DNA of 37,277 nt from a virus, in the IMG/VR virus record IMGVR_UViG_3300042876_000891, positions 1-37,277 of that record. One strand, written 5' to 3'. Shown piece after piece: positions 1 to 37,277 of this stretch. Numbering within the stretch: position 1 is the stretch's first letter; each line of letters starts with the position of its first letter. A program made the position numbers and the translations under genes. The notes beneath the pieces were generated by a model that was not told the DNA's origin, searched no databases, and worked only from the letters and a program-made list of their open reading frames with translations.

Positions 1-127
1 TCTCGGGGAAGGTGACGCGGCCGCGGGGCGAGGACTGCCCGGGCTGCTCGAGCTGGACCTGCCCGGCTACTTGCGCTGCTTCTCGAAGAACTGCTCGGCC
101 GCCTGCGAAACCCTGTCGCTGAGCTCG
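1..127. repeat. Terminal direct repeat copy 1 (identical to 37151..37277); end overlap that closes the sequence into a circle
   Basis: Bases 1-127 match 37151-37277 base for base. The repeat lies inside coding sequence rather than at a non-coding genome end. Confidence 0.95.
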
Positions 128-2971
128 TCGCGGCTGACCTTCTCGCCGGCCCGCAGCACCGTCACGCCGCCGATCTTCAGCCCGCGATGCGCGGTCGGCT
201 GCTTCGGCTGCGACTCCCCGCTGCTTGTGGGCTTCGACGAGGGCGTCTGCTGCGTCATAGGTGGCTCCGAGTCCGTATCCGAAGGTGACGTTGAGCGGCT
301 CGCCATCCTCGTGTGTGATAGTAGCGCACAAGGCAGCGAGGTCGTCAATGAACGCCTGCAAGGCCTTGGGATCGTTGGACCGGGCCGCGAACTCGTCCCC
401 CGAGAGGTGCGCGAAGTCGAACTCGGCGCCGTAGGCCTTCGCCGCAGCGCGCGCCACGCCGATGAGCATCGCGTCGCCAACCTCGACGCCGAGCGTCTCG
501 TTGACCGCCCGGAGCCCGTTGAGGTCGATCGAGGCGACGTGCGCCGCCTTGTCGAGCTTCTCCAGGAGGAAGAACCCCTCCCCCGTCAGCGCGCCGTTCC
601 CGTCCAGGAAGGCGGCCTTGAAGGCGGCCTCGTCCGGCGGGAGCAGCTCCCGGACCTCGGCCGGGACGTCCGCGGCAGCGAGCTCCTCCGCGGAGAGCTT
701 CATCTCGGCCGCGGTCTCGACCTTCACGCCGAGGGGCTTCGCGCCGCGCAGCGCCCGCTTCCCCGAGCCCTCGAGCCCCTTCTTCGTGCCGGCGTGGGTC
801 GCCCCCGCCTCCTCGAGCGTGGCTCCCACCGCGCCGGTGAGCGCGATCCCCTCCGGCATGGCGGCCTGCGCCTGCTCGAGGATGCGCGCCAGCTCCGCCT
901 GGTCCGCCACGCGGACGGCGAAGTCGCCGCCCACCTTGGCGACGAGTGGGGCGGCGCCCCGCAGGGCGCGCGCCGCCGCTCGGTACAGCAGGTTGCCGGT
1001 CGTGTGGCCGCTCTTGTTGGCCCACTTCGTGCCCTCGACCGAGATGTGCGCGACGAGCGGCCGCGCCGGGTCCGCCGGCAGCGCCTCGAAGGCCCGCCGG
1101 TTCAAGGTGCCGGAGTTGTGGTCGGTGAAGAAGAGCGCCTCCTTCCCGGCCCGGTCGAGCCCGGTGAGGTGCTTCGTCAGGAGCTCCGAGGAGCGGGTGA
1201 ACGGCAGCCCCGCCGGCGTGAGCCCGCCGAGCGCCTCGTTCTCCACCTGCAGCCCCATCGTCTCGTAGAACGACCAGGCGTCGCCCTTGCCGAGCCGCTT
1301 CGCCATGGTGCGCGAGAAGGCGCTCCAGAGCGCGGCGTTCGTCCGGGCGATGTCCGGGTCCTGCCCGGCCGCCTCGAGCTTGGCGGCGACGTCGGCGAGG
1401 ACGCGCTGCTCGGGCGTCGCCTCGACCGGCTTCGCCTCCGCCTTCGCGCTCTCGTCGGCGAGCTGCTTCGCCTCCTTCTCGACCTTCTCGGCCTCCCGGA
1501 GCGTGAGCGCGTCGCCGACGCGCAGGTCCGGGACGAGCCCCTCGTAGCCCTTCAACGGCGCGACGTTCACCGCGAAGTCGTGGGTCGGGATCGTGACCTC
1601 GACGCCCGGGTTCCCGGCGGCCTCCTCGAGCTGGCGCGCGACGGCGGGCATCCGCTGGGCGACCCAGGCGAGATCCTTGTCGTTCGCCTGGAAGAGCTCG
1701 AGCAGCTTCTCGGCCGGCGCGGTGACCGACTCGATCGCCCCGCCCTGCCGCGCCTGGATGTTCTGGACGTGCTCGCGGGCGACGTCCGGCAGGCTCATCA
1801 CGGTCGAGGACTCGGTCGCCGCCTCGCCGAGGGCGGTGAAGAACTGCGCTCGCTCGCGCGCGTGCGACGCCTCGGTGACGTCCGCGCGGACCCCGGCGGC
1901 CACGCCCGGCGCGCCGTAGACGCCGCCGGCGAGCGCGCCCTCGAGGCCGGCCTCGCCGACCCGGCCCCAGTCGATCTGGACGCCCTCCTGGCCGTCGATG
2001 AACTGGCCGCCGAGGATGGTGTTCAGCTCCTGCATCGCCTCGGTGAGCCCCTCCGCCGTCATGCCGCCGGCGAGACGCGCCGCGGCGCGGGCGACCGCGG
2101 CCCGGCCAGTGTTCGAGCGCAGGGCGGTCCGGAAGACGTCCCGAGCGACCCCGCCCTTCATCAGGGCCTTCAGCCCGGGGATCTGGAATACCAGGTCGAG
2201 CGGGAGGACCTCGAGCGCGCCGTTCGCCGCGCCCACGATGCTGGACGCGAGGAAGGCCTGCTCGTGGGTGACGCCAGGGATCTGCATGTACTCCCGGTAG
2301 GCGCTCCCCATCTCGCGCTTGCCGGTGGCGATCGTCATCCCGGCCCGCCCGCCGACCGAGGCGCCGAGCTTCGCGCCGCCGATCATCGCCGGTCCGACCA
2401 GCGTCCCGCCGGTCCCCACCGCCGCGCCGAGGCCTGCGACCCCGGCCCCGATCATAGCGCCGGCCGCCGCCGTCGGGCCTGCCTCGAGCGCCGAGGCGCC
2501 CATCATCGGCGCCGACTCCGCCGCCGCGCGCAGGCCGCGCGCCACGATGCCGGTCTTCGGGCGGGGCACCGAGGCGGCGAGCTGCTCCAGGCGCTCGGCC
2601 TCCGCGATCTCCTCCGGGGTCGCCTCGCCGATCGCCTGCCGGTACCCGATGATGGCGATCCGGTCGTTCAGGCGCCCGCGGTAGGCCGCCTCGCCGATCC
2701 CGCCGGTGAGCATCGCGCCCGAGCCGCCGAAGACGTCCTCGAGGAAGGAGAGCCCCTTCACGTCGCCGGCGACCTGCGCCGCGCGCGCGGGGTCGGCGAG
2801 CAGCTCCTGCGTCGTCGGGGCGTCCTTCGTGAGCTCGGTCCAGCTCGGGGCGGCCGGAGCCGCCGGCTTCGGCTGGGAGGCGACGAGCGCCTGCGCCGCC
2901 GAGACCCCTGCCGCCCGCTCCCGGTCCTCCGAGCTCGGCGCGTCCGCCGCGAGCTCGTCCCAGGGGTTCAC
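1..2971 (-). CDS. N-terminal part of a giant virion-associated (ejection/polyvalent-type) protein. The ORF continues across the junction into 37150..33534.
   Basis: GTG at 2971 overlaps the upstream TGA (GTGA). My hand translation of this minus frame (codon tops congruent to 1 mod 3) from 2971 to 1 found no stop. The protein text is plausible: MNPWDELAADAPSSEDRERAAG..., a Gly-rich hydrophobic stretch GAMIGAGVAGLGAAVGTGGTLVGPAMIGGAKLGASVGG (2348-2461), then two GGDEF-like domains. The ORF track omits it because it runs off the window edge. Confidence 0.75.
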   Translation of the reverse strand, partial: MNPWDELAADAPSSEDRERAAGVSAAQALVASQPKPAAPAAPSWTELTKDAPTTQELLADPARAAQVAGDVKGLSFLEDVFGGSGAMLTGGIGEAAYRGRLNDRIAIIGYRQAIGEATPEEIAEAERLEQLAASVPRPKTGIVARGLRAAAESAPMMGASALEAGPTAAAGAMIGAGVAGLGAAVGTGGTLVGPAMIGGAKLGASVGGRAGMTIATGKREMGSAYREYMQIPGVTHEQAFLASSIVGAANGALEVLPLDLVFQIPGLKALMKGGVARDVFRTALRSNTGRAAVARAAARLAGGMTAEGLTEAMQELNTILGGQFIDGQEGVQIDWGRVGEAGLEGALAGGVYGAPGVAAGVRADVTEASHARERAQFFTALGEAATESSTVMSLPDVAREHVQNIQARQGGAIESVTAPAEKLLELFQANDKDLAWVAQRMPAVARQLEEAAGNPGVEVTIPTHDFAVNVAPLKGYEGLVPDLRVGDALTLREAEKVEKEAKQLADESAKAEAKPVEATPEQRVLADVAAKLEAAGQDPDIARTNAALWSAFSRTMAKRLGKGDAWSFYETMGLQVENEALGGLTPAGLPFTRSSELLTKHLTGLDRAGKEALFFTDHNSGTLNRRAFEALPADPARPLVAHISVEGTKWANKSGHTTGNLLYRAAARALRGAAPLVAKVGGDFAVRVADQAELARILEQAQAAMPEGIALTGAVGATLEEAGATHAGTKKGLEGSGKRALRGAKPLGVKVETAAEMKLSAEELAAADVPAEVRELLPPDEAAFKAAFLDGNGALTGEGFFLLEKLDKAAHVASIDLNGLRAVNETLGVEVGDAMLIGVARAAAKAYGAEFDFAHLSGDEFAARSNDPKALQAFIDDLAALCATITHEDGEPLNVTFGYGLGATYDAADALVEAHKQRGVAAEAADRASRAEDRRRDGAAGRREGQPRRAQRQGFAGGRAVLREAAQVAGQVQLEQPGQSSPRGRVTFPE
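67..258 (-). CDS. 63-aa ORF nested in an alternative frame inside the linker of the giant ORF (hypothetical protein)
   Basis: ATG at 258 is preceded by GGAG (268-265) with a 6-nt spacer, and the TAG stop is at 67-69. By hand count 60 of 63 codon third positions are G or C. Text: MTQQTPSSKPTSSGESQPKQPTAHRGLKIGGVTVLRAGEKVSRDELSDRVSQAAEQFFEKQRK. Confidence 0.6.
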   Translation of the reverse strand: MTQQTPSSKPTSSGESQPKQPTAHRGLKIGGVTVLRAGEKVSRDELSDRVSQAAEQFFEKQRK

Positions 2972-4719
2972 CGGCCACCCCGCAGGTACGCGCGGACCGC
3001 CATGTCGGCGATCGCCGTCGAGCTGGAGTCTTTCCCAGCCTTCTGGAGCGCCGCCTTGATCCGGGGGCCCTGCGTCTGGATGAGGTCGAACACCTGGAAG
3101 GCCTCCGGCTTGGTGAGCACGCGATCGCCGGCGCTGCGCTTCCAGCCGGTGGTGATGTCGCCCTCCCACGCGCTGAACTCGGTCATCGTCGTCTTCTGGG
3201 CCTCGGGGGTGAGCCCCTTCCCGCGGCGGAGCGTGCTGTCGCGGACCGCCGTCGAGTAGTCGCTCGGGATCCCGGAGTCCTTCGCCTCGGCCTTCCACGC
3301 CTTGGCGTTGACGAGCTTGTCGACGAGCGGGTTCACGATCGCGGTCTGCTCGGCCGGGGTGAGCGGCGCGGCGGAGCCCTTCCCGGCCTTCGCGCGCGCG
3401 GCGTTGTAGAGCGCCCGGTTCACCTCGCGCTGGACGTAGCCCACGGCGAAGGCGTCGTCCTCGGCGTCCTTCCCGGCGACGTGCAGCCCGTGGAAGACGA
3501 GCCTCGTGTTCGTCTCCTCCTGGGGGCCGAAGAAGGACGTGTACTTCACCGAGCTGGGGCCCTCGAGCTTCAGCGTCCGCTGCAGGTCGAGGAAGTGCTT
3601 CGCGTCCGGGACGGCCAGGCGGCTGAAGTACGACGCGAGGTCGGCGTTCTTGAACGCCTCGGGGTTGGTCGTGGCGAGGTTCGTCAGCTCGGCGTAGGCC
3701 TTCAGGTCCGTCTCGACGGGCTTCTTGTCCGGGCGGGTGCTCTCGACCAGGCGGATCGACCACTGGAGGGTCTCGCTCGACACGGTCCCGGGCGCGGGGA
3801 TGAGCTTCGTGGAGAGCTGGCGGCCGCCCGCCTGGATGTACGCGCCGAGCAGGGTGTTGCGCGCGGCCTCGTCGGCCTCCCGGAACTGGTTCGCTGCGGC
3901 GGACTTCTCGCCGTGCTCGAACTCCCGCACCTGCCCCTCGAGGACGCGCTTCCAGTCGGCGCGCTGGTCCGGAGAGAGGCGATCGAGCCCCTGCCCGCTC
4001 TCGAGCTGCCCGATGAGCCGGCCCGCCTCGAGGACGTCCGCGGTGGACCGGATGCCGGCGAGCCGCCGCGCCTCGAGCGGCCTCACCTGCTGCGCGAACT
4101 CGATGATGCCGAGCCGCTGCTCCTTCTCGGCCGGCTCGAACGCCGTCGTCTGGACGACCAGGTTGTGGGCCTTCAGGAAGTTTCCCGCCCGGATGCTGTT
4201 CGCGACCGCCTCGTCGAGCGTCTTCCGCTGGTCGGCGAGCATCCCGCGCAGCTGCGCCTGCTCGAGCCGCGCGCGGCGCCCCCGGATCTCCTCGGCCACG
4301 CCGGACTCGAACTCGGACTTCCATCCGCTGCCGACCGTCATCTCCCCGCCGGCCTGCGCGACCAGATCCTTCGCCGCCTTCGCGTGTAGGGCCCCCGCGA
4401 CCTCCCACGTCGGGATGGACCCCTCGCCGTTGAGGCGGCGCTGCACCTCGCTGTCGAGTGAGCCGATGTCGTCCCCGAGCCGCTCGCGGACGAAGGCCTT
4501 GTCCAGGTAGGGCGAGGCCCCGATCTTCGTCTCGACGTCGGCGAGCCCGGCCGCGACCTTCGCGTGCGCGGCCTCGAGCTGCGTCCGAACGAGCGAGCGG
4601 CCGAACTCGGCGAGCCCGGTCTCGATGGTCTGCGCGGCCTGCCGCTGCGCCTGGTCGACGCGGGCGAACGAGGCGCTCGAGTCCTGGACCGACGCGTACT
4701 CGATCTCGGGGAGCCTCAC
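2968..4719 (-). CDS. Putative internal virion/ejection protein (583 aa), in the position of the T7 gp15-type protein
   Basis: Plausible helical protein text with a GTG start at 4719. It sits between a small membrane-anchored protein and the giant protein, downstream of the tail-tubular-like genes. The function is inferred from position only. Confidence 0.55.
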   Translation of the reverse strand: MRLPEIEYASVQDSSASFARVDQAQRQAAQTIETGLAEFGRSLVRTQLEAAHAKVAAGLADVETKIGASPYLDKAFVRERLGDDIGSLDSEVQRRLNGEGSIPTWEVAGALHAKAAKDLVAQAGGEMTVGSGWKSEFESGVAEEIRGRRARLEQAQLRGMLADQRKTLDEAVANSIRAGNFLKAHNLVVQTTAFEPAEKEQRLGIIEFAQQVRPLEARRLAGIRSTADVLEAGRLIGQLESGQGLDRLSPDQRADWKRVLEGQVREFEHGEKSAAANQFREADEAARNTLLGAYIQAGGRQLSTKLIPAPGTVSSETLQWSIRLVESTRPDKKPVETDLKAYAELTNLATTNPEAFKNADLASYFSRLAVPDAKHFLDLQRTLKLEGPSSVKYTSFFGPQEETNTRLVFHGLHVAGKDAEDDAFAVGYVQREVNRALYNAARAKAGKGSAAPLTPAEQTAIVNPLVDKLVNAKAWKAEAKDSGIPSDYSTAVRDSTLRRGKGLTPEAQKTTMTEFSAWEGDITTGWKRSAGDRVLTKPEAFQVFDLIQTQGPRIKAALQKAGKDSSSTAIADMAVRAYLRGGR

Positions 4720-12037: not shown

Positions 12038-12040
12038 GGG

Positions 12041-13980: not shown

Positions 13981-13983
13981 GGG

Positions 13984-14268: not shown

Positions 14269-14271
14269 GGG

Positions 14272-15747
14272 CTACCTCGAGCTGCCGAACGAGCGCACGG
14301 CGGAGCGCTCCCCGGTCTGGTTGTCGACGATGACGACGGTGCGGATCGCGGCGAGGACGACGGCGTCGCCGCGATCGGGAGAGCGGCCGAGGCGCTTCTT
14401 CACTTCGGCCTTCTCCTCGATGACGAGGCCGCGACCGCTGAGCCGGTAGCGGGGCGCGCAGAGGTCGGCGAAGAGCCGCTGGTCGGGCGGGAGAGCGACG
14501 CGGGGCGCGCGGTCGGGAGAGAGCGCCTCGCGGAAGCGCCACCAGGTCTCGGCGCGCCGGTTCGTGAAGGCGAGCTTACCGCTCATGTCCGTACCGTCCG
14601 AGCCCTCGGAGTTGTTCACACCCACGACGCGTCGGCCGACGAGGCCGTCCAGGTGGTCGATGACGGAGGCGCCGATCCCGATCACGTCCACGTGGATCGG
14701 CGCCTCGTCGCCGGCGACCTCCATCGCGCGCAGGGCGGCCGCTCCGCCGGTCACCACTCCCGACGAGTCCGGCTTCACGGTGACGATTTCGTCGTAGCGC
14801 CAGCCGTGGCGCGCCGCGATCGTGGTCTCGTCCCCACCGCGCGACGGGTCCACGCCGACGCTCGAGACGGGGCCAGAGGGCTCGCTCTGGCGCCAGCGGT
14901 CCATGGCCGCCTTCACCCAGGCGCTCGGGATGACCTGCCACTCGTCGTCCTGGCGGCCGGCGGTGAAGTCGCCCTGCAGCATCTGCGAACGGAGCGGCTC
15001 GGGGAGCGCCTGCAGCTGCCGGACGTAGTTCGTGCCGGCGAGGAAGCGGTTGTCGGCTACGCGGCTCGGGATGAACGTCCGCGAGATCGGCGAGATCGTC
15101 TCGCCCTTGTGCTCGAAGGGCTCGGGGCCGTCGACCCAGCGCTCGGCGCCGTCGACCATCGCGACCCACCGGAGCTCGCCGGGGAGCGCCGGCTTCGGGA
15201 AGGACGGGTCGAGCCAGGGCGCGAACCAGCGGACGAGCCACTCGCCCTCGGCGCTGGTCGGAGGGTTGGAGCACAGGAGCGCGCGCACGCGCTGCTTCCG
15301 GTCCGTGGTGCGGAGCCAGCCGAGCAGGAACCGGACCTGGCTCTCGAGCAGGTTCGCCGCCTCGTCGCAGACCAGGAGGTCGCGCGGGTTGCCCTGGAAC
15401 TTCGACTCGTCGCCGGCGTTGGGAACGCCGCCGAACTGGATCTGCCGGCCGTGCGGGAGGCGCCACACGTGCTCCTGGCCGTTGAGTCCGACGCGTCCGC
15501 CGAGGAGCGCGGCGAGCTCGTCGATGACGGGCATGAGCTGCGTCGCCTCTCGCCGGACGAAGAGCGTGCGGCGGTGGCGGGTGACGGCGAGGCCGATGCC
15601 GAGCGCGGTCTTCCCTCCGCCGGCGGCTCCGCCGTAGAGCAGCTGGTCCGCCTCACACAGAAAGGCCTGCAGCTGGGGTCCGGGCTGCGGCACCCACGGG
15701 ACCGTGCTCGATAGCTCGGAGAGGCGCGCGCGGTCGACGACGCTCAC
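14272..15747 (-). CDS. terL: Terminase large subunit (491 aa)
   Basis: GTG at 15747 overlaps the upstream TGA. The text has Walker A LYGGAAGGGKTAL and Walker B-like DLLVCDEAANL, with a C-terminal nuclease-sized domain. The upstream part of the 633-aa track ORF is Arg/Pro/Gly junk. Confidence 0.8.
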   Translation of the reverse strand: MSVVDRARLSELSSTVPWVPQPGPQLQAFLCEADQLLYGGAAGGGKTALGIGLAVTRHRRTLFVRREATQLMPVIDELAALLGGRVGLNGQEHVWRLPHGRQIQFGGVPNAGDESKFQGNPRDLLVCDEAANLLESQVRFLLGWLRTTDRKQRVRALLCSNPPTSAEGEWLVRWFAPWLDPSFPKPALPGELRWVAMVDGAERWVDGPEPFEHKGETISPISRTFIPSRVADNRFLAGTNYVRQLQALPEPLRSQMLQGDFTAGRQDDEWQVIPSAWVKAAMDRWRQSEPSGPVSSVGVDPSRGGDETTIAARHGWRYDEIVTVKPDSSGVVTGGAAALRAMEVAGDEAPIHVDVIGIGASVIDHLDGLVGRRVVGVNNSEGSDGTDMSGKLAFTNRRAETWWRFREALSPDRAPRVALPPDQRLFADLCAPRYRLSGRGLVIEEKAEVKKRLGRSPDRGDAVVLAAIRTVVIVDNQTGERSAVRSFGSSR

Positions 15748-29585: not shown

Positions 29586-30053
29586 GTGCCCGCGCCCGCC
29601 GCCAGCGAGGTCCGGTACCTCTCCCCCCGGTCCCTAATGACCCGGTGGGACTGCTCCAAGTCCTCCGTCTACCGGGCGCTGGACGAGATGCAGCGGCTCG
29701 GGCTCTACTCCCCCTCCAACCCCGCCACCTGCATCTTCATCGGCGGCGACCGCCGCGTCTCCCTCTCCTCCGTGGAGGCCTACGAGCAATGCCACGCGCG
29801 CCTCGAGACGCAGCGACGATCTGGAAGATCGGCGGCCGCCGGGTCGGCTTCCTTCGGGAAGGCGTGTACGTCATTGACCGTCGTGTCCACGGGCGCCGCC
29901 TCAAGCGCTCGACGGGCTGCCTCGACGCGGCCGCGGCCGAGCTCGAGTACCGCCGCTTCGAGGCCGATCCTCTTGGCTACCTTCCTCGCAGCCGCGAAGG
30001 CGTCTCCTGGGCGGAAGCCGGGAAGCGGTTCCTCCGGGCCCAGCGGGCCGTAG
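29586..30053 (+). CDS. xis: Excisionase-like HTH protein. Only the first 70 or so codons look selected, and the ORF then stays open into the integrase gene.
   Basis: VRYLSPRSLMTRWDCSKSSVYRALDEMQRLGL...IFIGGDRRVSLSSVEAYE resembles Xis/AlpA-type HTH proteins. It lies directly upstream of int. There is no in-frame stop until 30051-30053. Confidence 0.45.
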   Translation: MPAPAASEVRYLSPRSLMTRWDCSKSSVYRALDEMQRLGLYSPSNPATCIFIGGDRRVSLSSVEAYEQCHARLETQRRSGRSAAAGSASFGKACTSLTVVSTGAASSARRAASTRPRPSSSTAASRPILLATFLAAAKASPGRKPGSGSSGPSGP

Positions 30054-30838
30054 CCCACAACACCGAGTACTGGACGCTGCAGCAGGCGCGCATCCTCGCC
30101 ACCTGGGGAGCGCGCCCCGCCTTCGTCACCCTCGACAGCTTCAACGCCGCCGACGTGAAGGCCTACCTGGCCGACCGCGCCGAGGGGAAGGCCGGGCCCG
30201 AGAAACGCAAGGGCCCCACCGGCCGCGCCACCAGGAACCGAGAGCTCGCCACGCTGAAGGCGCTCATGTCCTGGGCGCGGGACGAACGGCTCACCGCCAA
30301 CCACGCCGACGAAGAGATCCCCATCCTCCGCGAGGGGCGCGGGAAGAACGCGCCGCGCGAAATCCCCGAGACCGAGTGGCGCGCCGTCCTGAAGAAGCTC
30401 CTCCCGCGGTGGCGCCTGGCGTGCGAAGTACTCCTCGGCGTCGGCCTCCGCTACGGCGAGCTCGCCAGCCTCCAGCCCGAGCACGTCCGGACCGGCGGCA
30501 TCTTCGTCCCCGAGTCGAAGAACCGGGACGCCCGGACCATCCCGGCGAGCGAGCGCACCGTCCGGAGCGCGCAGAAGCTCCTGGCTCTCGGCGGCGTCCC
30601 GGCCGACCGCGGGATGCAGCTCGGGGACCGCCTCGAGGTGGCGTGCCGTCGGCTGAAGCTCCGCCCCTTCTCCGCGCACGAGCTCCGGCACACCTACGCG
30701 ACGAGCTGCCTCCGGTCGGGGATCGACCTGGAGACGCTCCGGGTCTGGATGGGGCACCGGAGCATCCTCACCACCCAGCGCTACCTGCATGTGGTCGCCG
30801 CCTCGACGTCGAAGCGCAGCGTCGGCGCGCCGCTGTAG
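29789..30838 (+). CDS. int: Tyrosine recombinase / phage integrase (349 aa)
   Basis: LRYGELASL (Arg), HELRHTYATS (H-x-x-R) and GHRSILTTQRYLH (His...Tyr) are the catalytic signature. The upstream part of the 520-aa track ORF is Arg/Pro junk. Confidence 0.85.
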   Translation: MPRAPRDAATIWKIGGRRVGFLREGVYVIDRRVHGRRLKRSTGCLDAAAAELEYRRFEADPLGYLPRSREGVSWAEAGKRFLRAQRAVAHNTEYWTLQQARILATWGARPAFVTLDSFNAADVKAYLADRAEGKAGPEKRKGPTGRATRNRELATLKALMSWARDERLTANHADEEIPILREGRGKNAPREIPETEWRAVLKKLLPRWRLACEVLLGVGLRYGELASLQPEHVRTGGIFVPESKNRDARTIPASERTVRSAQKLLALGGVPADRGMQLGDRLEVACRRLKLRPFSAHELRHTYATSCLRSGIDLETLRVWMGHRSILTTQRYLHVVAASTSKRSVGAPL

Positions 30839-31192: not shown

Positions 31193-33475
31193 CTAGAGTC
31201 GGTCGAACCACTCGGACACCGTCACGACATCGATCTGCCCGGCGGCCCTGCGGGTCGCGAGCCCAGCGATGAAGGTCTCGAACTCGGCGATCGCCATGGC
31301 GGTGGCGTCACCGACAGGGGCGATCCGGTGTCCGATGAAGATGAGCGACGCCTGCTCGGTGATCGCGCTGTCCACCCAGGACAGGAGCTGTGCGGCGGTG
31401 CGGTTGTCGATGGAGATGGACGGCAGCCGATGCGGCGCCCTCAGCCCGTTGAGCGTGCGGTAGTAGCCGAGATCGCCGTACCCGCCCGCCGTCGAGCGAG
31501 AGGTCTTGATTCCGGTCGTGCCCATGAAAGCCACGGCCTCTGGGCTGAAGTTGCCGTAGGGGTACGCGAAGTGCTCCACGGGTCCGAACCCGTTGGCCGC
31601 GAACACCGTCGCGCTCTGGTCGATCTGCGACTGCATGGCGGGGGTGGAGACTCCGCCGACGATGTAGTAGCGGCCCGCCACCGTGGTCTCTGCCGATGTC
31701 CCCGCCGTGTCGAAGGTGATGGTGGTGTTGTTCGGAGTGGTCACCACCGTCTTCACGCCATTGAACTCCGGTTCGTCGCAGCCCTGGATCTCCAGCGTGT
31801 TGCCGACGGAGTAGCCGTGCGGCTCGTTGAACGTCATCGTGGCCGTCGTGCCAACCCGGGAGTAGCTGGAGATGCGCTTCGCGAACGCCGTGTGGCCGAA
31901 GCTGTGGTCGCCCAGGTCCCACCCCTTCGCCTTGAGTTCCAGTGCCTGGGCTGCGGTGATGTAGCTCGGGTTGGTCAGGTACGAGGTGACGAGGTAGGCC
32001 GTCGCCCTCATCCCCGCGGCGGTGAGCCGGGGCAGGATGTCGTCATAGACGCTGTCCCACCCGTCGTCGAAGGTGAGCATGATCTGCGGCCGCGTCGCCG
32101 CGTTCGCCCACGCCCCGAAGACGCGCATCGTGACGGCCCCCTGGACGTTCGCCAGGGACCGCTTCACCCGGACCTCGATGTGCTTCACCGCCGCCCAGTC
32201 CATGACGCCCGTGACGGTGCAGGAGGCCTTCGTGGTCGTGAGCACGAGGCGGTCGGCCTTCAGGGTGAGCTGCTGGAACATGTCCTGCTTGCGGGCGTAG
32301 TTGAGGTAGTCCGCGACATTCACGTCGCACGAAAACCGGACGTCGACGTTGCAGCGGTACGCGCCGCCGCCGGGAAACCCGATCTCGATCCCAACCCGGT
32401 CGCCAGCCGACAAGTCGAACGCCCCGTCAGCTACCACGCCCGCGAACTGCCCGCTGCCGAGCGCCTCCGTCCAGCCGGTCTCCCATGCTCCGGCACCTGC
32501 GTTGAAGGCGGCGAACGCGCCCGTGGCCGACGCCCCGGGCGAGAGCGTGTGCGCCCCCGCGACGGTGAAGTCCTGGGCGAGCGTGCCGCTGATTCTCGGC
32601 TTCGCGACGGGGTCGAGCGCCTGCGTCACGACCGACCCGTACCAGATCGTCCCGCTCAACGTGGTCAGACGGTAGACGTCTGACTTCCCCGGCGTCACGG
32701 TCATCGTCGGGACCGTTCCACCGGCCCAAATGATGGTGTTCGGCCAGAAGACCTTTCGGCTGCCGGTCGCGTCCTGCGTGAACTGGAGCAGGATCTCTGC
32801 CGCGCCCGGCGCGTCGGGGACGCACACTGCGACATCCTGCGTCAGCAGGACGTTGCGCGCCTGCTTCGTGGAATCCACCACCACCAGGCCAGCCGTTGCC
32901 GGCGCCTCGGACGAGAGGGCAGCTCCGAGCACCGCGGCTTCGGCGGCAGCCTGGGCGGCCTCGGCGGCCACCTGGGCTGCCGCGGCGGCGTTATTGGACC
33001 CGAGCGCGGCGGCCGCGCTTCCCGAGGCGGCAGAGGCTGAAGTCGATGCGGTCTGCTCCGACAGGAGCGCGGCTGCCGCAGAATTCATCGCCTGGGCGGT
33101 GGGATCCACCGAGCGGAAGTCGTCCAGATCGCGCTTCACCTGCTGAGCCGCCATGATCGCCCGGTCGATCGTGCGCTCCACGGCCTCGGACGGAAAGGCG
33201 CTGTGCGCCCCCAGGTTGGTCTCCTGGGTGAGCGGGACCACGCGCTGAAGGCGAACGACGACGTCGACCTCCGGCGCCGCGAGGAACGTCACCGTCCCGC
33301 CGGCCGCCAGATCCTGGTTCGCGTTGAGCAGCGTGGTGAACCCGGCCGCTTGCACCACTCCGTCGAGTAGAACCTGGACGTGGGTCGAAGCGTACGTCTT
33401 GAACCCGAAGGCGAAGGCGACGGTGACGCCGTCCCCCGTGTAGTCCTGCCGCGTCGTCGTACTCGAGATCGTCAT
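31193..33475 (-). CDS. Tail fiber/spike protein with a C-terminal NodB-type (CE4) polysaccharide deacetylase domain (760 aa)
   Basis: The N-terminal fiber-anchor-like text is TRQDYTGDGVTVAFAFGF. An Ala-rich coiled segment follows. The C-terminal NodB motifs are TFDDG, HSFGH, FAYPYG and LIFIGH. AAGGAGAGG precedes the ATG. Confidence 0.75.
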   Translation of the reverse strand: MTISSTTTRQDYTGDGVTVAFAFGFKTYASTHVQVLLDGVVQAAGFTTLLNANQDLAAGGTVTFLAAPEVDVVVRLQRVVPLTQETNLGAHSAFPSEAVERTIDRAIMAAQQVKRDLDDFRSVDPTAQAMNSAAAALLSEQTASTSASAASGSAAAALGSNNAAAAAQVAAEAAQAAAEAAVLGAALSSEAPATAGLVVVDSTKQARNVLLTQDVAVCVPDAPGAAEILLQFTQDATGSRKVFWPNTIIWAGGTVPTMTVTPGKSDVYRLTTLSGTIWYGSVVTQALDPVAKPRISGTLAQDFTVAGAHTLSPGASATGAFAAFNAGAGAWETGWTEALGSGQFAGVVADGAFDLSAGDRVGIEIGFPGGGAYRCNVDVRFSCDVNVADYLNYARKQDMFQQLTLKADRLVLTTTKASCTVTGVMDWAAVKHIEVRVKRSLANVQGAVTMRVFGAWANAATRPQIMLTFDDGWDSVYDDILPRLTAAGMRATAYLVTSYLTNPSYITAAQALELKAKGWDLGDHSFGHTAFAKRISSYSRVGTTATMTFNEPHGYSVGNTLEIQGCDEPEFNGVKTVVTTPNNTTITFDTAGTSAETTVAGRYYIVGGVSTPAMQSQIDQSATVFAANGFGPVEHFAYPYGNFSPEAVAFMGTTGIKTSRSTAGGYGDLGYYRTLNGLRAPHRLPSISIDNRTAAQLLSWVDSAITEQASLIFIGHRIAPVGDATAMAIAEFETFIAGLATRRAAGQIDVVTVSEWFDRL

Positions 33476-33533: not shown

Positions 33534-36500
33534 CTACTCCCACTTCGACGGGTTGCGGAAGAGCAGGTCCTGGACCGGCTCCTCGAGCTCGCCCGAGAGC
33601 AGCTGGTCGGTGAAGAGTCCGAGGTTCCAGAGTCCCCCGGTCGGCAGCTGCATCGTCGAGCCGACCAGGTCGACCACCGCCTTCGCGTCGGACTTGCCCA
33701 GGTCGTCGCCCTTCACGACCTTCCCGGCCGCGAGCGCGCTCCGATAGATCGTGTCGAGCCACGGCGCTCCGCGGGGGGGGCGCCCCTGAACGCCGACCGA
33801 GACGACGTCCCCGGCGAACGGAACCGTGCTCACCGGGAGGAGCGCCATCTCAAGCGAGAGCCGCTTTGCCACGTCGTCCGCGTCCTCGTCGTCGCCGACC
33901 CCGTTCATCAGGAGATGCTCGGCGACGACCGGAAGGAAGACGAGCCAAAGAAACCGCGCAGCGTACGTCTGGAGCGCCTTCGCGCCCTTCTCGCTGGTCC
34001 GCTCGGAAAGCAGGTTGTAGAGCACGCTCCGGTAGCTGAACATCACCGTGAAGAACTTCCGGAGCTCCCCGCCCCGCTGCACCGCCGCCAGGTCCTTCGC
34101 CCCGCCGCCGGTCTGGGTCATCGACACGACCGAGTCGGCGTAGGCGTTCGGGTTCGGGTGCCCCTCCTCGAGGGCCTGCTCCTTCGCCGCATACCAGGTG
34201 ATCGCGTTCACGCTCTTTTGGACCAGCATGATCGGCATCGCGCCGAACTCGACGACCCTCCGCCTCAGCCCACCGAGTTCGGTGAAGCTCGACTCGAGCG
34301 CGGTGAAGAGCTCGCGCGCGTCGCGGTCGAGCTGCTTGTCGATGAACTTGAACTCCGGGCTCTGCTCCCGGACCTCGGCCCAGCCCTCGCGCAGGAACTT
34401 GCGCAGGCCGGAGACCATGTGCCGACGCCGGAGCTCCTTCCCGGACGTGAAGAGCCCGAGCGCCTGCTTCACGCCCGTCGGGATCTTGCCGAAGAGGAGG
34501 ACGACCGAGGATCCGAAGCGGAGGTTGCGGAAGATGCGCTCGTACCGGAGGAGCGGCTCGGTCGTGTTCCCGTCCGCCGCGATGTTCTCCAGCCAGGGCC
34601 GGAAGCTGTTGAAGTACTCGCGGCCGATCCCCTCGGTGATCGCCTCCCGGACGTCCCCCTGCTGCAGGAGCCGGTCGACGCCGCGGATCGCCTCGTAGTG
34701 CGTCAGGTAGTGGATGACCTTGTCGAGGTGCGCCGGAACGACATCGAGGCTCAGCTCGAGCGGGCTCATGTCGCGGCCGCGGCTCTTCGTGAAGCCGTGC
34801 TCAACGACGGGCGCGAAGAAGTTCGACTCCCAGAGGGCGTCCGCGCGTTCCGCGAGTTGCAGGCCGAGGTAGCTCATCCGGCGCGACTTCACGATCGGGT
34901 AGTAGCCGCCGGAGAGCTTCCGTCCGCCGGGGAGCTGAAAGGGGGTCGCCTCGACCCTCGGCGGCGGCGAGCCGACATGCCGCTCCGAAAGCTCCTTCAT
35001 CGCCGGCCAGAGGGAGTCGACCGTCTTCCAGATGTGCTCGACGATCGCGAGGTCGCCGTCGTCCAGGAGCTGGTCCAGGCGGGCGAGAACCTCCTCGCGC
35101 TTCCAGCCGTAGCCGGCGAGCAGGCGGTCGGCGTTGCCGGCGTTGCCCAGGTTGAGCGCGACCGTGAGCACGTTCCGCCGGGTGAGCGTGACCATCTTCC
35201 CAGCCTTCGGCGAGTACAGGAACCCGACCTTCTCGGCGTAGCGCTTCCGGCGCGCGAGGGTGAGCTCCTGGAAGGGCTTCATCAGCGCGCCGTGGACCGC
35301 CTCGTTCATCTGGCTGCGCGCGTTCTGGGCGTCGCGCAGCGGTTGGAAGAGGAGCGAGTGGGCGAGGCCGGCCGTCTTCCCGCCGTCCAGGATCCGGGCG
35401 ATGAACTCGACCTTCTTCATCTCGGCGTCGGCGGAGCGCAGCCACTCCTTCGCCTTGTCGAGCGCGCCGAGGTCGCCCGGGGTCGGCTTCGCCGCCGTCC
35501 CGAGGTTCGTCCGGACGTGCTCCGAGAGATCAGCCGCCGTGCGCGCAAGGTCGCGCCGCTCCTTCCCGAGGAGAAGCTTCCCCTTCAGCCTGGCCATCGC
35601 CTCGATGTTCGCGGCCGCGGCCTCGACGCCCTGGAGCTCCTCGAGCGTCATCGCCCGCCAGGACTTCGGCTCGGAGAGGTCCTTCAGCGCCGGCGAGACC
35701 GTGTCGCCCTCGGCCTCCATCTCGGCGACGTACTTCGCGAGCGAGGCGCGCTTGCGGACCGCCTTGCCGCTCTCCTTGCGGAGCTGGATGCCGTCGATGA
35801 GGGCGTCCAGCGCCTCGACGTAGCGCTGCCCGGCCTTGCCGATCCGGCGCCGGGTGCCGACGTCCTCGAAGCCGCGGAGGTAGGCGCGGATCCGCTCGAC
35901 CTCCTCCTTCGCCTTCGCCGTCTCGGCTGCCATGAAGTGGTTCCAGATCTGGCGCCACTTCGCGTCGTAGGCCTCCGCCCACTTCTTCGCAGCGATCGCC
36001 TTCCCGAACTCGGCCGCCGACGTCGCCTCCGCGCGCCGGTACTTCCCCGGCTGCAGCTCGAGGTCGGTCATCCGGGCGACGCGCTCCTTCGCGCCGCGGC
36101 GGAGAGCCTCGACGGAGACCCGGCCGGGCCCGGCGGCGAGCCGCTTCCCGACCACGTCCAGCTCGCGGCGCATCCCGACGACCAGGCCCTCGACGTCGTG
36201 GACCGCCTTCACCGACATCTTCCCGAGCTGGGCGAGCTGCCCCTCCGGGTAGCGCTCGGCCATCCGGCGCTCGGTCTCCGCCTTCACCCACGTCTCGCGG
36301 CTCGGCGTCGTCACCAGCGCCTGGACGAGCTCGTGGCCGTCCTTGAAGCCGAAGTAGGGGGCGAGGTCCTCGGCCGAGAAGCCACCCTCCTTCGCGAGGA
36401 AGGGGGCGAGCCGGCGCAGCCCGCGCGCGTCCGTGAGCCCCTCGAGCGACGCCGGGTCCAGCTGGGCGCCGGCGATCGCCTCGTCGACCACCTGGCCGTC

Positions 36501-37277
36501 GAGCCGCTCGCCGGTCCGCAGGAACTCGCGGAGGTTGAAGACGGGGTCGAGCGTGGAGAGCTCCTGGACGTCGTCCCGGACCGCGTCCCGCTCCTCGCCG
36601 AGCTGGCGCCGGAGTCCCTCGAGCGACCGCTGCTCGACGGCGGCCTGCGCGTCGCGCGCGGCCCCCTGCCAGCCGGACTGGTAGGTCGCGAACGCCTCCG
36701 GCGTCATCCCGGCCTCCTCGGCCGTGGCGAAGGCGGGCACGATCCCCGCCTCCTGGCGCGCCTGCGCGATCTCGGCCTCGGTGGCGAGCAGCCGGTCCAT
36801 CACGCCGCGGACCTCGTCGGTCAGCTCGACGTTGAGCCCGCGGAGGGTCCGGTAGACGTGGAGAAGCCACGCCTTCATCGACTCGAAGGCCTGGACGAGC
36901 CCCGGCGCCGGCGCGCGCCCCTCGCGCAGGTAGGCCTCGAAGCCGCGGGCGAAGCGCTCGAGCTGCTCGGCGGTGAACTCGCCGGAGAGCGGGACGCCGA
37001 GCCACTCGTGGATCGTGGCGAGGTCGGCCTGCAGCTCGGGGCTCTGCTCGGCGGTCTTCCGGAGCGTCTCGAGGAAGACGTGGCCCGACTCGTGGATGAA
37101 CGTCGAGAGGTTGGCCGACCCGGTCAGGGTGACCTTGAACCACGCGCGGTTCTCGGGGAAGGTGACGCGGCCGCGGGGCGAGGACTGCCCGGGCTGCTCG
37201 AGCTGGACCTGCCCGGCTACTTGCGCTGCTTCTCGAAGAACTGCTCGGCCGCCTGCGAAACCCTGTCGCTGAGCTCG
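33534..37277 (-). CDS. C-terminal part of the same giant virion-associated protein, including an HExxH zincin-like motif. 37151..37277 duplicates 1..127.
   Basis: The track ORF 33534..36878 stays open upstream to the window end in the same frame. Upstream text is ...FPENRAWFKVTLTGSANLSTFIHESGHVFLETLRKTAEQ...EQLERFARGFEAYLREGRAPAPGLVQAFESMKAWLL. Third-position GC there is near 100 percent. No ATG, GTG or TTG precedes the HExxH segment, so it must be read from upstream. Joined ORF is 6,588 nt, or 2,195 aa. Confidence 0.8.
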   Translation of the reverse strand, partial: RAQRQGFAGGRAVLREAAQVAGQVQLEQPGQSSPRGRVTFPENRAWFKVTLTGSANLSTFIHESGHVFLETLRKTAEQSPELQADLATIHEWLGVPLSGEFTAEQLERFARGFEAYLREGRAPAPGLVQAFESMKAWLLHVYRTLRGLNVELTDEVRGVMDRLLATEAEIAQARQEAGIVPAFATAEEAGMTPEAFATYQSGWQGAARDAQAAVEQRSLEGLRRQLGEERDAVRDDVQELSTLDPVFNLREFLRTGERLDGQVVDEAIAGAQLDPASLEGLTDARGLRRLAPFLAKEGGFSAEDLAPYFGFKDGHELVQALVTTPSRETWVKAETERRMAERYPEGQLAQLGKMSVKAVHDVEGLVVGMRRELDVVGKRLAAGPGRVSVEALRRGAKERVARMTDLELQPGKYRRAEATSAAEFGKAIAAKKWAEAYDAKWRQIWNHFMAAETAKAKEEVERIRAYLRGFEDVGTRRRIGKAGQRYVEALDALIDGIQLRKESGKAVRKRASLAKYVAEMEAEGDTVSPALKDLSEPKSWRAMTLEELQGVEAAAANIEAMARLKGKLLLGKERRDLARTAADLSEHVRTNLGTAAKPTPGDLGALDKAKEWLRSADAEMKKVEFIARILDGGKTAGLAHSLLFQPLRDAQNARSQMNEAVHGALMKPFQELTLARRKRYAEKVGFLYSPKAGKMVTLTRRNVLTVALNLGNAGNADRLLAGYGWKREEVLARLDQLLDDGDLAIVEHIWKTVDSLWPAMKELSERHVGSPPPRVEATPFQLPGGRKLSGGYYPIVKSRRMSYLGLQLAERADALWESNFFAPVVEHGFTKSRGRDMSPLELSLDVVPAHLDKVIHYLTHYEAIRGVDRLLQQGDVREAITEGIGREYFNSFRPWLENIAADGNTTEPLLRYERIFRNLRFGSSVVLLFGKIPTGVKQALGLFTSGKELRRRHMVSGLRKFLREGWAEVREQSPEFKFIDKQLDRDARELFTALESSFTELGGLRRRVVEFGAMPIMLVQKSVNAITWYAAKEQALEEGHPNPNAYADSVVSMTQTGGGAKDLAAVQRGGELRKFFTVMFSYRSVLYNLLSERTSEKGAKALQTYAARFLWLVFLPVVAEHLLMNGVGDDEDADDVAKRLSLEMALLPVSTVPFAGDVVSVGVQGRPPRGAPWLDTIYRSALAAGKVVKGDDLGKSDAKAVVDLVGSTMQLPTGGLWNLGLFTDQLLSGELEEPVQDLLFRNPSKWE
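37151..37277. repeat. Terminal direct repeat copy 2 (redundant with 1..127)
   Basis: Identical to 1-127. The unique replicon length is therefore 37,150 bp. Confidence 0.95.

Follow-up and report, generated by a model that had tools for sequence, protein, structure and literature searches.

The largest open reading frame of this viral DNA runs off both ends of its contig, which raises the question of whether the two pieces form one gene and what such a gene would encode. The window (the whole stretch analyzed, 37,277 nucleotides) is best explained as the genome of a temperate BPP-1-like podovirus, assembled as a circle and broken arbitrarily inside its largest gene, which encodes a single large polyvalent protein of 2,195 amino acids (aa) from the LPD22/Bbp10 family. 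This explanation as a whole, including the mechanism proposed below, is assigned a probability of about 0.85.

Continuity of the giant frame

Comparison of the two ends of the window revealed that bases 37151 to 37277 are an exact duplicate of bases 1 to 127. The nonredundant unit is therefore a circle of 37,150 bp, and the duplicated end reflects overlap in the assembly of a circular path and adds no genome. On this circle, the join of 2971..1 with 37150..33534 (minus strand, as for all genes and protein features below) spans 6,588 nt and translates as 2,195 codons with a sole, terminal stop codon (33536..33534). A previous sequence-only reading had proposed a single 2,195-codon frame across the junction; translation of the circle and the uninterrupted gene of the related locus L003 bear this out, and the proposed join order is correct given the 127-base overlap. 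The recircularization and retranslation that it recommended show the frame open from GTG 2971 to the stop at 33534, and the overlooked in-frame stop between 2971 and 1 by which it could have failed is not present. The 5' part (1..2971) holds codons 1 to 990 and the first base of codon 991, in open frame with a third-position G+C (GC3) of approximately 0.95 to 1.0, whereas the 3' part (33534..37150) holds the remainder of codon 991 to codon 2195. The 1,114-aa ORF called from ATG 36878 is, as suspected, only a fragment, lying within this 3' part. The segment upstream of it, from 37277 down to 36879, was correctly read as devoid of ATG, GTG, and TTG, and in the joined frame none of these occurs between codon 881 (TTG 331) and codon 1082 (ATG 36878). 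Its coding nature is confirmed by a conserved HExxH...E domain and a GC3 of 1.0, with the reported HExxH present as HESGH at 37094..37080. The GTG start (2971..2969) indeed overlaps the preceding gene's stop codon in the letters GTGA, and the predicted N terminus (NPWDELAADAP) is like those of homologues, P0003 beginning with MNWDELAADAP. The upstream 583-aa gene (2968..4719) is translationally coupled to the giant ORF, which is the largest gene and occupies 17.7% of the genome, in line with the earlier estimate of about 18%.

The genome has a G+C content of 71%, and shadow ORFs in the window reach 1,227 codons. Because long open frames are cheap at this composition, the codon-position signal is the deciding evidence. 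GC3 in the giant frame is 0.89 to 1.00 in all 300-nt windows except one, and only 104 of 2,196 codons end in A or T. In L003, an independent contig collinear with the window across the join, the giant gene is contiguous and internal, and its product is 81% identical to the giant protein over aa 3 to 2195 with 4 gaps. Database homologues are continuous through the join sequence '...WFKVTLTGSANLSTF.HESGH...'. Comparison with related genomes, also recommended earlier, found the frame kept as one unit in all 24 related loci, with the C-terminal module within one open frame of 1,700 to 3,060 codons. Across these loci and approximately 120 database homologues, the product is a single protein of roughly 1,100 to 3,050 aa, mostly 1,800 to 2,100 aa, and closer database relatives (P0003 and P0005 to P0008) are single proteins with matching N- and C-modules. 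An artefactual origin of the long frame, whether by chance in very G+C-rich DNA or through a misassembled junction, has a negligible likelihood: the window does have spurious ORFs of >1,000 codons and the join does fall within the assembler's 127-bp overlap, but the codon-position signal persists along the entire ORF, the collinear contig and the database homologues carry the join, and the same giant ORF exists in relatives of low G+C content (50 to 58%).

Codon usage breaks at about 330..70, and codons 881 to 1000 account for 40 of the 104 A/T-ending codons. Over 190..70, frame-0 GC3 drops to 0.4 to 0.5, whereas that of the +1 frame is approximately 0.95. Over 258-67 it is the +1 frame that shows the native usage, leaving in frame 0 a stretch of some 60 codons with nonnative usage. 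The locus could thus be read as making two proteins, with the N-module and cargo moving, past the GGDEF domain, into the +1 frame and ending at TAG 69..67, and the C-module made separately. The native usage of the +1 frame from about 250 to 67 would fit, as would its stop, at the very point from which frame 0 regains native codon usage and homology to the family. However, a separate C-module would have no frame-0 ATG, GTG, or TTG from codon 881 to ATG 36878, although the intervening HExxH...E region is conserved with a GC3 of 1.0. The modules are fused in one frame in homologues at 63 to 85% identity, as in the 24 related loci, and in the window, L003, and L041 the interval from the GGDEF helix to the core of the short +1-frame ORF (X, described below) contains no conserved slippery site. 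Moreover, X has its own ATG and GGAG, and its length matches that of free-standing homologues. Two proteins are therefore very improbable, and a single continuous polypeptide is retained.

A polyvalent protein with GGDEF-like cargo

The giant is of a type already known from temperate podoviruses resembling BPP-1, the LPD22-type large polyvalent proteins (Bbp10, PHROG 9880). Its 3' part matches PHROG 9880 with an E value of 1e-253 over profile positions 958 to 2211 of 2231. The suggested resemblance to multidomain polyvalent proteins holds, since homologues carry Pfam LPD22 above threshold together with interchangeable cargo (PBECR1, PBECR5, ART-PolyVal, LPD3, HATPase, and GNAT). A Zeta-toxin domain occurs in one homologue, which itself has no LPD22 match. 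A conserved N-module is followed by a slot for variable cargo, then by a zincin domain with HExxH, and finally by a C-module of ∼1,100 aa that is entirely helical. The N-module (aa 1 to 589; 1205..2971) has tblastn matches in the same frame in L001, L005, L006, L012, L013, and L015, and matches PHROG 2206 (N4 virion RNAP family) over profile positions 214 to 547 (E 3e-7). It contains an LPD22-like stretch (aa 38 to 88; 2860..2708), which at 20.3 bits is under the Pfam cutoff of 28.6, while close homologues carry PF18834, and, by hydropathy, a Gly/Ala-rich hydrophobic stretch (aa ∼150 to 215; 2524..2327). The HExxH motif (H1010, E1011, and H1014; 37080..37094) lies in a zincin-like domain; in comparisons of 36 to 80 homologues its H and E show little or no variation, and an invariant E1055 lies downstream. 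This region matches no Pfam MPTase model, and its equivalent in Bbp10 has been described as a CLCA_X zincin (PMC3650047). Fold matches in BFVD are to the C-terminal pieces of LPD, ART-PolyVal, and MuF giants. In the C-module, a hydropathy scan detects two hydrophobic helices (aa 2054 to 2075 and 2093 to 2111; 33789..33962) that are helical in the AF2 model.

The borders of the cargo cassette are defined by comparison with cargo-less relatives (P0005, P0007, and P0008) and differently loaded ones (P0003 and P0006). The slot here holds two GGDEF-like domains in tandem, the first degenerate and the second with SGDEF, a cargo that is rare in the LPD22/Bbp10 family. This cargo had gone unrecognized in the sequence-only reading. 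Domain 1 (aa ∼619 to 735; 767..1117) has a GGDEF-like fold with the degenerate motif VGGDFAV; it is modeled by AF2 with a pLDDT of 70 to 90, has GGDEF folds as its best PDB matches, and matches PHROG 9661 over aa 616 to 707. Domain 2 (aa ∼794 to 919; 215..592; SGDEF at 403..389) is recognized by Pfam GGDEF at 29.5 bits against a cutoff of 23.8 (E 7e-7) and matches PDB diguanylate cyclases weakly, the AF2 model of the cargo being poor here (pLDDT of 35 to 65). Alignment of domain 2 to a cellular cyclase shows IDLNG.(K/R)AVN(D/E)TLG..(A/V)GD...GDEF kept. The motif has S here, and H or T in relatives, in place of the first Gly of GGDEF, so canonical diguanylate cyclase activity is uncertain. A fold search with the cargo returned GGDEF domains and the tandem-domain GTP cyclohydrolase III (2qv6). 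The stand-alone protein P0001 is 43% identical to cargo aa 590 to 930 (39% by BLASTP), and a conjugative element has the same tandem module on its own, adjacent to a T4SS coupling protein.

From terminase through portal, capsid, and tail tube A/B, the genes continue with a small protein, the 583-aa protein, the giant, and the tail fiber, the same order as in BPP-1 and Carin1. The 583-aa protein takes the position of Bbp11 and Carin1 gp33, has a weak PHROG endolysin match, and is 54 to 58% identical to the same-position gene in L068 and L069. The 760-aa tail-fiber gene downstream (31193..33475) matches PHROG tail-fiber N-terminal families, and its N terminus resembles Bbp9 and Carin1 gp31. The T7 gp16-type slot assigned earlier is supported by this order and by the listing of Bbp10 as a divergent IVP-D homologue by Hardies et al. 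(PMC4819975). An LPD-bearing protein of 2,811 aa has been detected by mass spectrometry in phi24B virions.

By gene position and analogy with relatives, the giant protein would be packaged in the capsid with other internal proteins and leave through the tail at infection. The N-module, with its Gly/Ala-rich stretch, and the ∼1,100-aa helical C-module, with its C-terminal hydrophobic helices, would form the carrier or ejection part, and the variable slot (aa ∼590 to ∼967) would hold the payload. The zincin domain may cleave the polyprotein or a host target. With domain 1 degenerate and domain 2 retaining metal- and base-binding residues and SGDEF and lacking an inhibitory RxxD site, the two domains could together be a self-contained pseudodimeric nucleotide cyclase that may alter host nucleotide signaling early in infection. 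The giant might instead be a structural part of the virion or tail, or act only in the producing cell, delivering no effector to the next host. For every LPD22/Bbp10-family member, any evidence of ejection is indirect, and the C-module lacks a relative among solved structures, both of which leave room for this reading. Nevertheless, enzyme- or toxin-like domains (ART, RNase-like PBECR, Zeta toxin, GNAT, and GGDEF) vary at one slot of otherwise conserved proteins, which fits payload delivery; the gene is in the internal-virion-protein position, and the same cargo adjoins the T4SS coupling protein in the conjugative element. A role without delivery is thus unlikely.

Nested +1-frame gene X

The 3' end of the cargo cassette is dual-coding, as judged from codon usage and conservation: frame 0 (68..259; codons 905 to 968) provides the tail of domain 2 (905 to 919) and then a poorly conserved Arg/Gly/Ala/Gln-rich linker, and the +1 frame carries the 63-aa gene X (67..258; ATG 258..256, TAG 69..67). 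Both the break in codon usage and the nested gene had been missed earlier. Frame 0 must be read through X because no start codon occurs from codon 881 to codon 1082, yet the HExxH...E region there is conserved in the family; the openness of frame 0 across X is what composition alone would give. The ATG of X is preceded by a GGAG at a distance of 6 nt. The X peptide is conserved at 70% in L003 and at 50% over its core in L041. Free-standing homologues (P0123, 60 aa; P0125, 57 aa) are found on the phage-like contig L064, and P0124 is a three-repeat homologue. A relative with different cargo has neither the codon-usage anomaly nor a nested ORF.

X probably is a separately initiated 63-aa protein, although its expression and role are deduced from these features. 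The +1 signal could instead be the relic of a captured gene bypassed by a frameshift, or the end of a product made by programmed +1 frameshifting. Consistent with this, the stop of X coincides with the 3' end of the cassette, its ATG is at a different place in L041, and substitutions between the window and L003 show no preference for the +1 third position. Against it, the 50% conservation with L041 in the +1 frame, compared with ∼23% identity in frame 0 over the same bases, is accompanied by 7 codon changes that are synonymous, among them a serine switch between AGC and TCG. The ATG and GGAG are made from rare TAT and GGA codons and are both kept in L003, and the free-standing homologues have a similar N-terminal length. 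A relic or frameshift tail is therefore the less probable account, with a real but minor chance.

Comparison with known systems

The closest known proteins are Bbp10 of BPP-1 (2,052 aa; PHROG 9880), gp32 of the Cobetia phage Carin1, the giant of Pseudomonas phage AF, and giants of Xanthomonas, Caulobacter, and Vibrio podoviruses. With the Bbp10 family, the giant shares a C-module homologous over ∼1,200 aa at 30 to 33% identity, the HExxH domain in the same place, an LPD22-type N-terminal module, and a gene between the tail-tube/internal-protein genes and the tail-fiber gene. It differs in cargo, which is PBECR1 in Bbp10 and PBECR5 in Carin1 gp32 but here a tandem GGDEF-like pair with a nested +1 gene. 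The polyvalent-protein concept of Iyer, Burroughs, Anand, de Souza, and Aravind (2017; PMC5512222), in the part of that text available, describes unrelated enzymatic domains on one polypeptide, LPD domains, a zincin-like HExxH peptidase as a hub domain, and genes within the phage packaging/structural module, as here, and explicitly lists GGDEF as rare cargo. The GGDEF example there, from an Acetonema longum prophage, is accompanied by SNF2, MTase, and ART, whereas here the tandem pair is the only recognizable cargo; the same part of the text describes no overprinted gene inside a polyvalent ORF, in contrast to X.

As with T7 gp16 of the gp14/gp15/gp16 ejectosome, the gene for the giant closes the internal-protein block, is its largest member, and directly precedes the tail-fiber gene. 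Unlike gp16 (1,318 aa), the giant has 2,195 aa, a swappable cargo slot, and no lytic transglycosylase domain; the two have no detectable sequence similarity (hhalign probability of 4.7%), and Foldseek matched the C-module to none of the solved structures, T7 gp16 included. With diguanylate cyclases (PF00990), domain 2 shares a match above the Pfam threshold and the Asp, Asn, Asp, and GDEF residues, but it has SGDEF in place of GG(D/E)EF and lacks the RxxD I-site and a sensory or dimerization domain, and domain 1 lacks the catalytic Glu and first Asp. A two-domain likeness is offered by the tandem GTP cyclohydrolase III (MJ0145), the 2qv6 structure returned by the fold search. Two-palm arrangements are also found in Cas10 and in the C1/C2 pair of adenylyl cyclase. 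For X, the parallel is lambda Rz1 inside Rz, an embedded out-of-frame phage gene. As with Rz1, X is a complete small +1 gene wholly within a larger same-strand gene; unlike Rz1, it has no lipoprotein signal and is unrelated to lysis, its host gene encodes a predicted giant virion protein, and it has free-standing homologues elsewhere.

One open frame across the contig junction

The first 127 bases of the window (37,277 bp, 70.8% G+C) are an exact duplicate of its last 127 bases (positions 1 to 127 versus 37151 to 37277), and removal of one copy leaves a circle of 37,150 bp. On the minus strand of this circle, 2971 to 1 followed by 37150 to 33534 is a 6,588-nt sequence that can be read as 2,195 codons before the only stop, at its end. 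This agrees with the single frame proposed by the sequence-only reading, including the stretch from 2971 to 1, where a missed in-frame stop had been considered. The 1,114-amino-acid ORF from ATG 36878 (minus strand) was also rightly taken for a fragment, as it forms the 3' part of the joined frame. No ATG, GTG, or TTG lies between the window end and 36879, as had been reported, and frame 0 (that of the giant ORF) contains none from codon 881 (TTG 331) to codon 1082 (ATG 36878) at which the all-helical C-terminal module could start independently. The only near-start codons in this interval are CTG and ATC, within or after the HExxH region. The proposed start, GTG 2971, shares a GTGA overlap with the upstream stop, and the predicted N terminus (NPWDELAADAP) matches the N termini of homologues.

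The length of the frame alone is weak proof, because DNA as rich in G+C as that of the window yields chance open frames exceeding 1,000 codons. Two antisense shadow ORFs lie opposite real genes, one of 1,062 codons at 71 to 3259 and one of 1,227 codons at 12031 to 15714 (both plus strand); very long shadow ORFs are typical of very G+C-rich DNA and are a trap for arguments from ORF length. Codon position is the telling evidence: third-position G+C (GC3) of the giant ORF is 0.89 to 1.0 in all 300-nt windows except one, and A/T-ending codons number 104 of 2,196.

Three lines of comparison agree in indicating that the giant ORF is one gene and not an artifact of the join, the frame being conserved as one unit in related genomes. 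In the related contig IMGVR_UViG_3300034178_000058 (L003, with the same sequence as L033), the giant gene is one open frame in mid-contig, its protein is 81% identical over amino acids 3 to 2195 with four gaps, and at the DNA level contig and window are collinear over the 1/37150 junction. In 24 of the 24 loci first collected (G+C content, 50 to 70%), the C-terminal module lies inside a single open frame of 1,700 to 3,060 codons, and the N-terminal module (amino acids 1 to 589), where detectable, shares that frame. Database homologues at an E value of ≤1e-10 number 259; of the 120 listed, the majority have 1,800 to 2,075 amino acids. The closest full-length proteins (P0003, P0005, P0006, P0007, and P0008), whose C-terminal modules are 63 to 85% identical, are single proteins that carry both modules and read through the junction of the window ('...WFKVTLTGSANLSTF.HESGH...').

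Because a conserved gene runs through it, the 127-bp duplication is read as a signature of circular assembly, not as a biological terminal repeat; assemblers often use 127 as their largest k-mer. A direct terminal repeat of a linear genome was rejected as its cause, since neither L003 nor any homologue shows a break in the crossing gene. The splitting of the giant gene by the contig break was correctly recognized earlier, yet it is an ordinary finding by itself. Automatic calling mis-splits the gene whenever a circular contig opens inside it. A database protein from a 7.8-kb ENA contig (P0004) has 1,114 amino acids, the length of the truncated ORF of the window, and begins at the methionine equivalent to 36878, which suggests that public data contain further instances of this truncated call. 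Such mis-split calls therefore leave the largest and most informative protein of the phage underannotated.

The phage, the polyvalent family, and the cargo slot

PHROG scans gave the minus-strand gene order helicase, small and large terminase, portal, 271-amino-acid protein, major head protein, tail-tube A, tail-tube B, 124-amino-acid protein, 583-amino-acid protein, giant, and tail fiber. The 271-amino-acid protein has no assignment and occupies the scaffold position between portal and major head protein, the 583-amino-acid protein upstream of the giant has a weak endolysin-family match (PHROG), and the downstream tail-fiber gene carries the usual N-terminal adaptor. The plus strand holds recombination genes and a tyrosine integrase (29789 to 30838). 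The nearest cultured relatives are Bordetella phage BPP-1 (giant Bbp10, 2,052 amino acids), Cobetia phage Carin1 (giant gp32, 2,854 amino acids), Pseudomonas phage AF, and Xanthomonas, Caulobacter, and Vibrio podoviruses. The gene order surrounding the giant is identical in BPP-1 and Carin1; a literature search on Carin1 returned nothing directly relevant. Prophage-like relatives occur in Caballeronia, Paraburkholderia, and Cardiobacterium genomes and in a Myxococcales metagenome-assembled genome (loci L025, L026, L028, and L029, of which L026 is the Myxococcales one). The integrase and the relatives sitting in bacterial genomes indicate a temperate phage, and the 71% G+C content and the Myxococcales relative give a hint of its host.

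The C-terminal 1,200 amino acids of the giant match PHROG 9880, the family of Bbp10 and gp32 (E value, 1e-253; profile positions 958 to 2211 of 2231). Fold matches of the C-terminal module in BFVD reach an E value of 3e-57 and are C-terminal pieces of giant phage proteins named LPD-, ART-PolyVal-, MuF-, or nuclease-containing. The AlphaFold model of amino acids 996 to 2195 (36-sequence alignment) is nearly all helical, with a mean pLDDT of 80; no solved-structure relatives of this module were found by sequence, and the best Foldseek match in the PDB had an E value of only 0.48. Hydrophobic stretches are present at amino acids ~150 to 215 (Gly/Ala-rich) and 2054 to 2111. The LPD22 domain (PF18834) scores 20.3 bits in the window giant, below the Pfam cutoff of 28.6. 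It is carried by the equivalent N-terminal module of the close homologues P0003 and P0006 to P0008 and lies above threshold at the N terminus of Bbp10 (88.5 bits), of gp32, and of most database homologues.

The HExxH motif that had been noticed upstream of Met-36878 is HESGH at 37094 to 37080, and it is conserved across the family: H1010, E1011, H1014, and the downstream E1055 show no or almost no variation in alignments of 36 to 80 homologues. No Pfam MPTase model matched this region at an E value of ≤1, and no solved-structure relatives were found in the PDB. The equivalent region of Bbp10 has been assigned to the zincin family CLCA_X (PMC3650047).

The architecture of "polyvalent proteins" was defined by Iyer et al. 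2017 (PMC5512222), who also describe GGDEF as infrequent cargo and zincin-like HExxH peptidases as the hub domain. Between the conserved ends, Bbp10 carries PBECR1, Carin1 gp32 carries PBECR5, and other relatives carry ART-PolyVal, LPD3, HATPase, GNAT, Zeta toxin, DUF7178, or none. Both unrelated domains in one polypeptide (GGDEF and HExxH here) and their shuffling among relatives (varied cargo at the same slot) were found. This bears out the earlier polyvalent-protein reading, and sequence comparison places the window giant in the LPD22/Bbp10 polyvalent family.

Alignment with close relatives sets the borders of the cargo cassette at amino acids ~590 to 967 (coordinates ~1204 to 70). In P0005, P0007, and P0008, which are without cargo, '...GLQVEHEDIAAIPVEPGLQVAAQ...' runs directly into '...RGYVTFP..R.WFKVTLTG'; in P0003 and P0006, a different insert of ~170 amino acids with a GNAT-like 'GGQGYSTALY' stretch occupies the same position; and in the window giant and L003, the insert is ~378 amino acids long. 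The latter consists of two GGDEF-like domains (amino acids ~619 to 735 and ~794 to 919). Domain 2 matches Pfam GGDEF (PF00990) over amino acids 809 to 910 with 29.5 bits against a threshold of 23.8, and in alignment with the cellular diguanylate cyclase P0002 it keeps IDLNG..AVN(E/D)TLG...GD and GDEF. Its motif is SGDEF, with Ser in place of the first Gly, and it has no RxxD inhibitory site. Domain 1 has a degenerate VGGDFAV (GGDF without Glu) and no catalytic acidic residues. The AlphaFold model of the cargo is confident for domain 1 only; a PDB search with it returned, as best matches, GGDEF domains and, spanning both domains, the tandem-domain GTP cyclohydrolase III. Related cargo in the giants of loci L015 and L026 has the motifs HGDEF and TGDEW, respectively.

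A word-indexed protein search with the cargo returned only two matches, low-complexity words having probably saturated the candidate list. A stand-alone tandem GGDEF-like protein of 469 amino acids (P0001; L062 positions 1545 to 2954, ENA k119_1063674) is 39% identical and is encoded two genes upstream of a TraG/TrwB-type coupling protein of type IV secretion on a contig resembling a conjugative element, so that the cargo module appears also to travel in conjugative elements. The tandem pair could be an intramolecular pseudo-dimer, which would spare regulated dimerization, and it may make c-di-GMP or something else. A literature search on phage-encoded diguanylate cyclases returned nothing directly relevant. 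Tandem GGDEF-like cargo is rare and lies beyond the ordinary for polyvalent giants. The same slot in close relatives is empty or holds a different ~170-amino-acid cargo or the tandem pair, and the locus gives a clean view of payload exchange at one fixed slot in polyvalent ejection proteins.

A nested reading frame at the 3' end of the cargo

Codons 881 to 1000 hold 40 of the 104 A/T-ending codons of the giant ORF. From ~250 to 70, frame 0 is rich in Arg, Gly, Ala, and Gln and has a GC3 of 0.4 to 0.5, the linker of amino acids 920 to 975 including GFAGGR, AVLR, and EAAQVAGQVQLEQPGQSSPR. The +1 frame there has a GC3 of ~0.95 and reads MTQQTPSSKPTSSGESQPKQPTAHRGLKIGGVTVLRAGEKVSRDELSDRVSQAAEQFFEKQRK up to a stop. 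It contains a nested gene, X, of 63 codons with native codon usage, its own ATG (258) and GGAG, and a TAG at 69 to 67 (minus strand). Right after this stop, the codon usage of frame 0 and its homology to every relative return. The ATG of X is formed by a TAT codon, which accounts for 3 of 37 Tyr codons in the giant gene and 2 of 104 in other genes, and the GGAG is formed by a GGA codon, GGA codons being clustered there. The X ORF is kept in L003, including ATG, GGAG, and stop. L041 is a fragment (58% G+C) of a further GGDEF-bearing giant. Identity to it over 30 codons is 50% for the +1 peptide and ~23% for frame 0 on the same bases, and the +1 frame has seven synonymous changes and an AGC/TCG serine switch. 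L068, with different cargo, has no codon-usage break, and its +1 frame stops at the equivalent border.

The core of the X family is ~40 amino acids long (G-L-x-I-G-G-V-x-V-x(3)-G-E-x-[VI]-S-x(2)-E-x(3)-R...F) within a small protein. An exhaustive HMMER search with the 43-amino-acid core of X found a free-standing protein of 60 amino acids (P0123; 51% identical; E value, 1.4e-4) and a three-repeat protein (P0124; E value, 6e-4). The gene for P0123 lies on a phage-like contig of 72% G+C (L064) and adjoins that of a 57-amino-acid paralogue, which was detected with an E value of 4e-13 by a profile built without it; the X-family profile search gave E values of 5e-19 and 1e-18.

Conservation, rare-codon start signals, free-standing homologues, and cargo specificity argue that the +1 frame of X is translated. 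The signal could possibly come instead from a +1 frameshift product, but no conserved shift site is seen; a −1 slip just before TAG 69 was rejected, as no slippery heptamer is present. The plus-strand shadow ORF at 71 to 3259 shares its third positions with the minus +1 frame and was rejected as the source of the GC3 signal, because its translation is meaningless and rich in Cys and Ser, in contrast to the minus +1 frame, for which homologues exist. The idea that X is the ancestral in-frame tail of P0001 was dismissed with a best E value of 0.11 (one-sequence search, not significant) and no frame anomaly in the P0001 gene.

The conserved HExxH domain can be translated only from a start upstream of X, so that frame 0 must be read across X. 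We therefore read 258 to 67 as a dual-coding stretch, in which frame 0 would specify a tolerant linker within the giant protein and the +1 frame a separate protein of 63 amino acids. At 116 to 63, a segment that spans the 3' end of X and the switch back to frame 0, ~55 nt are identical to L003 in a region otherwise ~85% identical. This identity is consistent with a double coding constraint and might also reflect an RNA or DNA signal. A conserved overprinted gene at the 3' end of the cargo lies beyond the ordinary, and X, overprinted on the linker between cargo and carrier, makes a compact and testable case of a gene kept inside an uninterruptible ORF.

After the GGDEF-like cargo of L015 (~6360 to 6620) and L026 (~6375 to 6625), there are +1 ORFs of 83 to 84 codons that end just before the C-terminal module. 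Their start is the equivalent ATG, which arises from a NAT codon of the last GGDEF helix, and third-position G+C shifts locally. Membership of the X family was rejected for both, as the X profile misses them and pairwise similarity to X is not significant. It is conceivable, although we consider it unlikely, that the cassette is a two-component unit forced into the giant ORF, comprising a tandem cyclase-fold enzyme and its cognate small protein X. The enzyme would be self-sufficient, with one catalytic SGDEF domain, a degenerate partner, and no I-site, and, injected with the genome, it would flood or jam host nucleotide signaling or defense. X would keep the enzyme inactive in the cell that makes it, or would cooperate with it in another way, and would be linked to the cargo only by +1 overprinting because a stop codon would break the carrier. 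On this view, the nonhomologous +1 ORFs of L015 and L026 would represent alternative partners, resembling those of toxin-immunity pairs.

Proposed ejection and comparison with T7 and N4

The internal-protein block ends with the giant gene, after which comes the tail-fiber gene; comparison with the T7 gene map places the giant at the position of gp16, as the sequence-only reading had it. A profile link to gp16 was rejected, since hhalign of the family profile was not significant (probability, 4.7%; one short motif only). The Foldseek search of the PDB likewise gave no fold link to gp16. Bbp10 was assigned to internal virion protein D on the basis of divergent homology, with customized methods (Hardies et al., PMC4819975), and mass spectrometry detected a different LPD giant in phi24B virions. 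We infer that the giant acts like an ejection protein of the gp16 slot, though homology to gp16 is undemonstrable; its position and relatives suggest packaging in the virion and delivery with the DNA. The protein would be synthesized late, incorporated as an internal virion protein, and expelled via the tail at infection. The conserved N- and C-terminal modules would supply packaging and ejection functions, the putative zincin domain would process the polyprotein or a host target, and the cargo would act inside the newly infected cell. This model draws on the gene position, the payload-like variable middle, and the literature on Bbp10 and the phi24B giant. A virion-delivered nucleotide cyclase, if true, would mean direct phage control of second-messenger signaling at entry; the idea goes back to a 2017 prediction, for which no experimental test was found.

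T7 gp16 has an N-terminal lytic transglycosylase domain, whereas the window giant has none, with no Pfam or PHROG match to such a domain; BPP-1 and Carin1 encode the lysozyme or transglycosylase in a separate gene upstream of the giant. Part of the N-terminal module of the window giant (amino acids 146 to 534; window 2971 to 1370) matches the PHROG of N4-type virion RNA polymerase (phrog_2206, positions 214 to 547 of 3406; E value, 3e-7). The latter is another giant ejected protein, and this similarity hints that giant ejected phage proteins share an N-terminal module.
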